From positions 11,759 through 75,758 of the forward strand of contig CAXHJY010000375.1 in assembly GCA_964016885.1 (NCBI GenBank): a stretch of DNA of 64,000 nucleotides. Reading direction: 5' to 3'. This DNA is from Eledone cirrhosa (taxonomy: Eukaryota). A model generated the notes under the pieces. That model saw only the letters and a list, made by a program, of their open reading frames with translations, made no database searches and was not told where the DNA came from. A program made the translations under genes and the position numbers. Below are positions 24,728 to 26,443 of the stretch, piece after piece (within the stretch, counting starts at the first letter, position 1; each line of letters opens with the position of its first letter).

Positions 24728-25200
24728 TAAGTATGTACACGCACATACATATATGTATACAGACGTACAGTAGTATGTATATGTATATACATACATGCAC
24801 ACATATATATATGTACGTATGGATTCACCGAACATTTATTATAATGCTCGGTGTGTTTGTAAACAAACATCCCGTATTAAGCCGTAGTGTCCAGCAACCA
24901 TCGTTGCTCGTTTATTCAACACTGACAAAGGAAAGCTGTAGTAGTTTCAAGCTTATTAGCTATCATCAGCAACGTATACATTCCTGCCAGATTGTTGAAC
25001 GTATATACTTACCTTATGCATATTAACGGCTGAGTAGCCCAATTTGCATATCTAGTGGGTTAATCCGCCGGGTGCACCGAATACGATAAACAGGAAAAAT
25101 GAAACGAAATTTCATTTCCCACTCTTAGTACGGCTGTTACTTAAATATAAGTATGTACACGCACATACATATATGTATACAGACGCACATACATATATGT
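24728..25200 (-). mobile_element. Retrozyme-like HHR element, diverged copy, ~1.1 units (period 420)
   Basis: Terminal direct repeat TAAGTATGTACACGCAC at 24728 and 25148; HHR at 24935. Confidence 0.75.
24935..24973 (-). ncRNA. Hammerhead, diverged subfamily copy
   Basis: Reverse complement GTTG-CTGATGA-TAGCTAATAAGCTT-GAAA-CTAC-TA-CAGC. Confidence 0.75.
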
Positions 25201-25530
25201 ATAGCCTTGTTTCGCTTTTGTTGAAGCTTATCAAGGCTAACTACCCTCCTGTCTACTGAGATTACTGATGTTATATTCTTATAGAATTCTAGTCAATAAT
25301 CAGGAACTGATTATACAGAGCGATAGTTGGACAGGCAGAAATAAAAAAAATTACACATATATATATATATATATATATATATATATATATATATATATAT
25401 ATATATATACATATAATCAGGAACTGATTATACAGAGCGATTGTTGGTCAGGCAGAAATTAAAAAGTACATATATATATATATATATATATATATATATA
25501 TATACGTACATATATAAATATATATATATA

Positions 25531-26443
25531 TAAGTTGAAAAAAAAATGAAAACGAAATTTCATTTCTCACTCTTAGTATGGCACTTACTTAAATGTAAGT
25601 ATGCATGTATACGTACATACATATATGTATACATACGTACAGTAGCATGCATATATATATATATATATATATATATATATATATATATATATATATATAT
25701 ATATATATATATATATATATATATATATATATATATACATATACATATATACATACAGGTACACATACATATATGCACGCATCAGTTTAGCGGACGCTTA
25801 TTATAACGCCGCTTTGTTCGTTTGTCAACAAACTGAACAGCCTGAATTTATGCCATACGGTGTTAAGGCAACCACGTCACCTTTTTGTTCAACACTGACG
25901 CAGGAACGATGTACTAGTTTCAAGCTTGTTAGCTATCATCAGCACCGTTTACCCATCTGCCAGATAGTTGAACGTTCGAAAGTATATACTTTCCTTATGA
26001 AAATTAACATACATACTTATATTTAAGTAAGTGCCATACTAAGAGTGAGAAATGAAATATCGTTTTCATTTTTTTTTTCAACTTATCGTTTTCGGTATGC
26101 CTGACCGATTTAACTCACTCAATATGCAAATTAGGCTGCTCAGCCGTTAATTTTCATAAGGAAAGTATATACTTTCGAACGTTCAACTATCTGGCAGATG
26201 GGTAAACGGTGCTGATGAGAGCTAACAAGCTTGAAACTTAACACCGTATGGCATAAATTCAGGCTGTTCAGTTTGTTGACAAACGAACAAAGCGGCGTTA
26301 TAATAAGCGTCCGCTAAACTGATGCGTGCATATATGTATGTGTACCTGTATGTATATGTGTATATGTATATATATATATATATATATGCATGCTACTGTA
26401 CGTCTGTATACATATATGTATGTACTTATACATACATACTTAT
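25531..26443. mobile_element. Two head-to-head copies of the retrozyme-like HHR element
   Basis: 25531-26008 (HHR on minus) joined to 26009-26443 (HHR on plus, with internal deletion), in different circular permutations. Confidence 0.8.
25905..25949 (-). ncRNA. Type I hammerhead ribozyme (same family as 59843)
   Basis: Reverse complement reads AACGGTG-CTGATGA-TAGCTAACAAGCTT-GAAA-CTAG-TA-CATCGTT. Confidence 0.85.

Follow-up and report, generated by a model that had tools for sequence, protein, structure and literature searches.

A 64,000-nt stretch of the Eledone cirrhosa genome (contig CAXHJY010000375.1; hereafter the window) contains a short hammerhead-bearing repeat in several closely similar copies, which raises the question of what kind of element this is and how its copies entered the genome. 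A sequence-only reading had listed six copies with periods of 420 and 488 and had taken them for a recent (TA)n-associated retrozyme or non-autonomous PLE family. Mapping of the unit within the window, for which the final query lacked the microsatellite, confirmed all six locations as well as both periods (420, from 24728 to 25148; 488, from 59145 to 59633). The six copies represent only four insertions, however, because 25530-26443 and 59145-60214 are each one back-to-back pair (Table 1). Unit coordinates (ref) run along the ribozyme strand of a natural copy, with ref 1 at window position 59632 and ref 488 at 59145.

Table 1. Features of the retrozyme insertions in the window (window coordinates).
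Feature	Position	Strand	Remarks
Insertion 1, single arm, subfamily B, ~1.1 units	24728..25203	-	no-tail 3' end at 24728 against (TA)n
Subfamily B type I hammerhead, predicted	24932..24976	-	intact core (24969); stem III palindrome broken in this copy
Subfamily B octamer word ATGCAAAT	25042..25049	-	TATA-like word 42 nt further on
Insertion 2 left arm, subfamily A	25530..26008	-	5' truncation at unit position 123; tailed 3' end
Insertion 2 tail, ~61-63 nt	25530..25594	-	at this end of insertion 2 only
Insertion 2 type I hammerhead, predicted, intact (core 25942)	25905..25949	-	predicted cut after GUA at 25912
Insertion 2 right arm, inverted	26009..26443	+	no-tail 3' end; 50-nt deletion takes stem III and cleavage site
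Insertion 3 left arm, subfamily A, one 488-bp unit and part of the next	59145..59688	-	no-tail 3' end at 59145
Insertion 3 left-arm hammerhead, predicted	59407..59451	-	C3 changed to U
Insertion 3 promoter-like block, upstream of ribozyme	59485..59532	-	octamer 59525-59532, TATA-like word 59485-59490
Long predicted hairpin around the internal variable-length (TA)n tract of the unit	59145..59293	-	fold prediction
Insertion 3 right arm, inverted	59807..60214	+	5' truncation at unit position 144; tailed 3' end (60152-60214)
Insertion 3 right-arm type I hammerhead, predicted, intact (core 59850)	59843..59887	+	predicted cut after GUA at 59880
Insertion 4, single short arm, subfamily A, unit positions 266-488	62548..62804	-	without ribozyme; no-tail 3' end

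Two young subfamilies are present in the window, A with a unit of ~488 bp and B with a unit of 420 bp. The A segments showed 94.5-99.6% identity to a natural A unit. The segment at 24728-25200 contains the repeat, as the earlier reading had it, but belongs to a separate subfamily: over aligned bases it is 98% identical to subfamily B, with 324 of 330 bases matching a natural B unit, and 85% identical to subfamily A. The unit has a GC content of 35.5%, and an ORF scan of a natural trimer found no coded protein. An ORF for RT plus GIY-YIG is absent from the unit, and the longest ATG frame of the trimer (78 aa) lies on the opposite strand and passes through the microsatellite. A coding function was rejected on this ground, and the earlier statement that there is no credible ORF was upheld.

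In the 3.0-Gb genome, an exact pattern of the ribozyme core had 11,930 matches (reversed control, 0), among which three loop II variants (A, B and C) were distinguished. A genome search with the unit returned 1,984 first-look candidates, 40 of which were scored and showed 96-97% identity on many chromosomes; a search with subfamily B returned 2,627 first-look candidates. Contigs of three sequencing runs of one sample also contained the family, which bears on its presence and not on its transcription. A related-core pattern had 11,317 further matches genome-wide (control, 12), and a related family with a 466-bp unit was ~64% alike over 337 aligned columns. At the fetched loci, tandem arrays consisted of 2 to ~15 units of 420-550 bp. 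Units from different insertions differed by a median of 7 substitutions in 356 bp, and for this reason the spread of the family is recent, as had been proposed. No LTR layout was visible in the maps of the window and the fetched loci, and every sequence-level feature of metazoan non-LTR retrozymes that was checked is present (tandem short units, a type I hammerhead, no coding capacity and GC below 50%). As to class identity alone, we are highly confident that the element is a metazoan non-LTR retrozyme, a known class. Separately, loci L204-L238 hold related retrozyme families (466-470 bp units; ~11,300 cores) that have the ribozyme geometry and the octamer block in common.

The sequence-only reading had assigned to each unit one type I hammerhead ribozyme with a 7-bp stem I and a palindromic ACTAGT stem III. 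Both stems were found as described, but the core is intact in only three of the six window segments (24969-, 25942- and 59850+). Predicted stem I pairs G-C, U-A, G-U, G-C, C-G, A-U and A-U; stem II has U.U at its base followed by three pairs, and in stem III a single A-U pair closes a palindromic loop. Among subfamily A units, 148 of 161 have an intact core. Between A and B, 30 of 31 bases are equal from the core to stem III and 85 of 130 downstream, with the G-U pair of stem I changed to U-G. In 13 sequences of related families, 90.4% of the cells pair and 28 cells carry two-sided changes (0 of 500 shuffles), whereas slid controls paired at no more than 45%; the shuffle control ignores kinship among the 13 sequences, so that the covariation figure is not a probability. 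The first stem II pair is open in 7 of the 13. Judged by these comparisons, the predicted ribozyme is kept by selection, because it is conserved and covaries across families that are only ~64% alike.

Folding predictions for the isolated ribozyme stretch gave an inactive fold of -13.9 kcal/mol versus -1.3 kcal/mol for the hammerhead fold, and the minimum-energy local fold buries the core. Local folding z-scores of five ribozyme stretches, one of them missing the ribozyme, were not significant against shuffles. The subfamily A monomer folded as a circle was 68% paired with z about -10, largely through the microsatellite hairpin, and the non-microsatellite part of the unit alone had z -5.4. An Rfam scan of the window gave no hammerhead match at the gathering score, and the core at 59850 was not among the E-value matches listed for 59000-63000 (150 of 169). 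These matches were (TA)n noise, except for a weak hammerhead match to another element at 62328-62398 (+), a separate, canonical-looking hammerhead with a GUCC/GGAC stem II that scored 30.3 bits with HH9, below the cut-off, and is not of the retrozyme family. With a single pair in its palindromic stem III and U.U at the opening of stem II, the ribozyme would probably cleave best as a dimer. According to the main texts of the two studies, self-cleavage of axolotl retrozymes is weak in the monomer and good in the dimer (Cervera and de la Pena, 2020; PMC7229834), and 8 of 9 predicted dimers of frog retrozymes showed no cleavage (Li, Clavereau and Pollet, 2026; bioRxiv 10.64898/2026.07.22.740005). 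Hammerhead-like cores of two more short repeat families, in part arranged as inverted pairs, occur at window positions 1729 (-), 1902 (+), 20369 (+), 39441 (-) and 39446 (+).

Copies had been said to begin and end at different points of one circular map. On the ribozyme strand this holds for the 5' ends, which are scattered, but not for the 3' ends, which are fixed at two sites; random circular permutation was rejected in favour of two fixed 3' ends plus variable 5' truncation. The 3' ends lie at ref ~63 or ref ~2, ~61 nt apart, and both run into (TA)n. Subfamily B uses the same two sites, and a check for target duplications found (TA)n flanking the insertions on both sides. Genome-wide, exact patterns matched 450 tail-to-(TA)n junctions (control, 0), 1,048 no-tail-to-(TA)n junctions (control, 1) and 1,310 cases of read-through beyond the tail end at ref ~63; these counts are not comparable as ratios, because the patterns catch different shares of variants.

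After duplicate loci had been removed by hand, the cluster map comprised 132 clusters; 18 at locus edges were dropped, leaving 114. Of these, 63 were two-armed and outward-pointing, none were inward-pointing, 47 were single-armed and 4 were complex. The tail was at one end only in 44 of the outward pairs, at neither end in 2 and at both in 1, with one end unclassified in 16; 44 of the 47 classifiable pairs were thus tailed at exactly one end. In loci not picked for the tail (L037-L083 left out), a hand count gave 25 of 28 pairs (P = 1.4e-5). At two loci, the target sides themselves are mirror images, over ~120-145 bases in the flanks of L071 (1181-6816) and 28 bases in those of L072 (914-4534), through either insertion into an inverted repeat or inverted target duplication. 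At L114 (3826-3888) and L082 (2760-2822), a tailed copy apparently lies within, or immediately next to, the (TA)n tract that belongs to another copy, and the retrozyme may target itself there.

The insertion anatomy of the family is that published for PLEs. As described in Craig et al. (2021; PMC8557442), PLEs are found as tandem 5'-truncated copies with an inverted second copy and a tail at one end, with (TA)n targets in Hydra/Naiad; tandem truncation, inverted arm, one-end tail and microsatellite target are all common to the Hydra/Naiad and Chlamys PLEs and the Eledone family. Unlike those PLEs, the Eledone unit is without an RT/endonuclease ORF, and its tail is ~61 nt versus the published 30-40. 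Non-autonomous, multicopy head-to-tail Chlamys elements, e.g. MRC1, are described in the same paper. For Poseidon PAc of the green anole, Frangieh et al. (2024; PMC11167929) reported that both DNA strands are nicked and extended and that two internal RT start sites bound the tail. Two sites bounding a tail and an AT-rich target likewise occur in the Eledone family; PAc, in contrast, is coding and primes without target homology in that account, whereas the Eledone ends fall at an AT dinucleotide common to the target. Arrays, covarying hammerhead, absence of an ORF, PLE-type ends and recent spread together support the original view of a (TA)n-associated retrozyme or non-autonomous PLE family.

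We then considered the template. The arms of paired insertions meet at 42 junctions, 37 of which were resolved. Microhomology of at least 2 nt was found at 13 of the 37 (17.6% expected by chance; P = 0.008), one case being a 16-nt palindrome, and 15 had extra bases instead. Only 1 of 64 A-family 5' ends fell around the predicted cut at ref 215-225 (2.0 expected), and 8 of 64 fell at ref 2-10 (P = 2e-4), a pile-up that might be due to stalling on the long hairpin or to collision with the second priming site of the same RNA. The cleavage site is crossed by 77 of 104 arms, 25 of them crossing it at least twice, a count inflated by the many loci that were found with queries spanning the site. Since arms pass the site and 5' ends do not pile up there, the cleaved linear monomer was rejected as template; arms running through the site fit a circular or an uncleaved template.

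The median difference was 1 substitution for units of the same arm and likewise for units on the two arms of one insertion, versus 7 for units of different insertions. The near-identity of arms is weakened as evidence because subfamily haplotypes are common to different insertions (among 12,446 between-insertion pairs, 392 have no more than 1 substitution); three insertions supplied 87 of the 101 between-arm pairs. At L071 there are 11 identical units of nearly constant length, at L069 seven units on two arms differ at one base, and at L067 two unit types alternate, in a phase that is equal on the two arms when counted from the 3' ends. The L067 and L071 patterns and the near-identity of arms fit one circle or dimer circle copied twice, and also an uncleaved transcript of a young array. 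At least seven arrays (L068, L070, L072, L078, L081, L087 and L097) contain shared non-periodic variants; therefore, a single pass round a circle does not account for every tandem unit, and these variants point to later duplication or conversion.

The window also contains coding PLEs. The ORFs of the Hydra type have no Pfam name and were assigned by the motifs given in PMC8557442. The element at 12629-14680 (+) has DKT, YRDD and CxCX5C motifs, with RWK in a longer copy, and is young genome-wide. Two 3' end sites were seen in 28 of 30 of its loci, all but one of them running into (TA)n and some through (TC)n, and in two of two arm pairs the tail, here ~108 nt, was on one arm only. Because of this tail length and because it has no sequence in common with the unit, we regard this PLE as a model of the mechanism and not as the identified helper. 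Comparison of the unit with the 3' regions of the two Hydra-type families of the window revealed no similarity, the best scores being reached by 11-96 and 65-100 of 100 shuffles; no helper was thus identified in a comparison that covered these two families of the many in the genome.

Several observations concern these PLEs themselves. The Hydra-type element at 12629-15370 (+) and at L202 lies in (TA)n, with a 3,017-bp tandem period and 3' ends ~108 nt apart, and carries a hammerhead-like motif that has the palindromic ACAATTGT and, in stem II, a very long insert. The second young Hydra-type family, at 48608-50332 (+), has 96-98% amino-acid identity genome-wide and a long AT-rich 3' region that holds its own microsatellite. 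A broken third Hydra-like PLE is at 6603-8529 (-), and GIY-YIG-like fragments are at 37507-37809 (+) and 41032-41409 (-), the latter with a Pfam GIY-YIG match. Hammerhead cores of another family at 46702 (-), 48098 (+) and 56831 (-) adjoin RT and GIY-YIG-like ORF fragments at 46964-48195.

A promoter-like block lies upstream of the ribozyme. In host U6 genes (three types) and the RNase MRP gene, a TATA word at -30 is preceded by ATGC(A/T)AAT at -76 to -78. The 12-letter host word also occurs in the units of A and C (9 of 20,000 shuffles, the motif having been chosen after inspection), and the octamer is found in subfamily B and the 466-bp family as well. The spacing from the octamer to the TATA-like word is 42 nt in A, B and C versus 46-48 nt in the host, and host spacing would place a start at ref ~173-178, just before stem I. 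Oligo-T runs inside a transcript stop Pol III, and subfamily A has a T7 run before the tail end; therefore, a Pol III transcript of A would stop before a full turn. Subfamily C has no T7. The octamer near -77 was absent from three U2 promoters, and the octamer was also absent from two repeat-interrupted U6 copies and four other U6 matches, in a survey that left out the 10 of 14 extra U6 stretches with no match to the 5'-end motif. Whole U2/U6 upstream regions aligned locally to the unit gave an unconvincing result (best 7 and 9 of 200 shuffles among 20 tests). We give the octamer/TATA block, a candidate by its sequence, about an even chance of being a working promoter. Newt satellite 2 and schistosome hammerhead repeats are described as combining an internal promoter with a hammerhead repeat, the promoter in newt being of the snRNA type and used by Pol II (PMC2220036, PMC6765202). 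Promoter function was shown for those repeats, whereas the Eledone unit has host-like words only, with altered spacing. In the host U6 and RNase MRP promoters themselves (L146-L150, L173), the octamer-type word, at -76 to -78, lies unusually near the start. A short repeat with a further copy at window 24300-24390 interrupts some of the U6 copies in the C19 array.

We think it probable, on balance, that the element is a non-coding tandem retrozyme inserted by PLE machinery at (TA)n and copied round an RNA circle. The unit would be transcribed, and the multimeric transcript would cleave itself after GUA, probably best as a dimer ribozyme; a host ligase would close the cleaved monomer into a circle. 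A borrowed PLE reverse transcriptase-endonuclease would nick both strands of a (TA)n tract, one cDNA would be primed on each DNA end, at unit positions ~63 and ~2, and both cDNAs would copy the template for a fraction of a turn up to many turns. Joining of the cDNA ends, often via microhomology, would give the back-to-back insertion, and some arrays may have been altered afterwards by local duplication or conversion. More tentatively, and with somewhat less than even confidence, we propose a self-sufficient RNA circle that has its own snRNA-type promoter and ribozyme, with one dimeric PLE enzyme priming both ends at sites 61 nt apart and rolling round twice. If so, rolling-circle target-primed reverse transcription would have left its record in the genome as these arrays, and the in-phase alternation on both arms would follow from dimer circles.

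A PLE might instead insert an uncleaved linear multimer transcribed from an existing array, with the ribozyme weak or dispensable and long arrays growing later by duplication and conversion. In vitro, PAc, the one PLE so studied, mainly used uncleaved RNA as template (PMC11167929), and the U.U base of stem II, the one-pair stem III, the favoured inactive fold and the non-periodic variants shared in at least seven arrays also speak for a linear multimer. However, the ribozyme is conserved and covaries across families ~64% alike, the identical, nearly constant units of L071 and the seven units of L069 on two arms are less easily obtained in this way, and cleaved multimers would leave 5' ends at the cut, where none pile up. 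We consider insertion from a linear multimer unlikely, and we regard a circle as about twice as probable a template. According to a further possibility, the unit is no more than the terminal repeat (pLTR) belonging to a coding PLE, and its copies are 5'-truncated debris. The PLE-type end anatomy would agree with such debris, and frog retrozymes are homologous to pLTRs in the main text of the 2026 preprint; but arms run into further units, up to ~15, where an ORF would be expected, the 1,310 read-through matches continue past the tail end, and in the unit maps nearly all arms stop at a further unit, at an inverted arm or at (TA)n. Given also the lack of similarity to the two coding PLE families, we hold this explanation to be very improbable.

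It is scarcely credible that the family is a satellite which recombination in (TA)n has spread, or that its palindromes are a sequencing or assembly artefact. The (TA)n tract of the unit itself and the short mirror-image flanks at L071 and L072 would be in keeping with such an origin, but the ends are fixed to the base on many chromosomes, orientation is outward in 63 pairs versus inward in 0, and 12 of 14 inspected pairs have no mirror flank beside the arms. Since the arms are unequal and have different ends, a fold-back artefact was rejected.

PLE mobilisation of retrozymes by tandem cDNA from circles was proposed in 2020 (PMC7229834), and the PLE link was supported in 2026 by co-occurrence and pLTR homology (bioRxiv 10.64898/2026.07.22.740005). 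The main texts of these two papers, supplements apart, report no tails or inverted arms, and our literature search, with the same scope for these two, found no report of tails or inverted arms in retrozymes, nor of a cephalopod retrozyme. The genomic evidence for PLE mobilisation is thus apparently new, in that we did not find it in print, and the gain is in mechanism and not in a new kind of element, because the class and the proposed PLE link are already published. The coral, mussel and axolotl non-LTR retrozymes in the main text of PMC7229834 are likewise short, AT-rich tandem repeats that code for no protein and carry a single type I hammerhead per unit. Both stem oddities of the Eledone ribozyme occur in axolotl, the U.U base of stem II in HHR_Amex2 and the palindromic stem III of one pair in HHR_Amex1. 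The Eledone unit is at or above the 150-450 bp range of those retrozymes and has an internal (TA)n, and inverted arms, tails, microsatellite targets and putative internal promoters are features of the Eledone family and not of that text. Cleavage and circles were shown for those retrozymes, whereas for the Eledone family they are predicted. The vertebrate non-LTR retrozymes of the 2026 study belong to the same class and have the same proposed helper; that study, in its main text, favours local tandem amplification, whereas the Eledone evidence is insertion anatomy, with no pLTR homology found in the two Hydra-type families compared.

How retrozymes are copied into genomes, and how PLEs produce tandem and inverted insertions with a one-sided tail, are treated as open questions in the portions of PMC7229834, PMC8557442 and PMC11167929 that bear on them. 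For the Eledone family, the two priming sites, the (TA)n target, the cleavage site and a candidate start site are predicted to the base, on a template of less than 500 nt and in a genome with young intact PLE ORFs; the family therefore allows a direct in vitro test of circular versus linear RNA. Apart from the retrozyme, a dispersed SINE-like repeat of ~200 bp with many copies was observed in the window at 873-1270, 7406-7613, 15889-16086, 21819-22167, 24196-24396 and 27949-28526.
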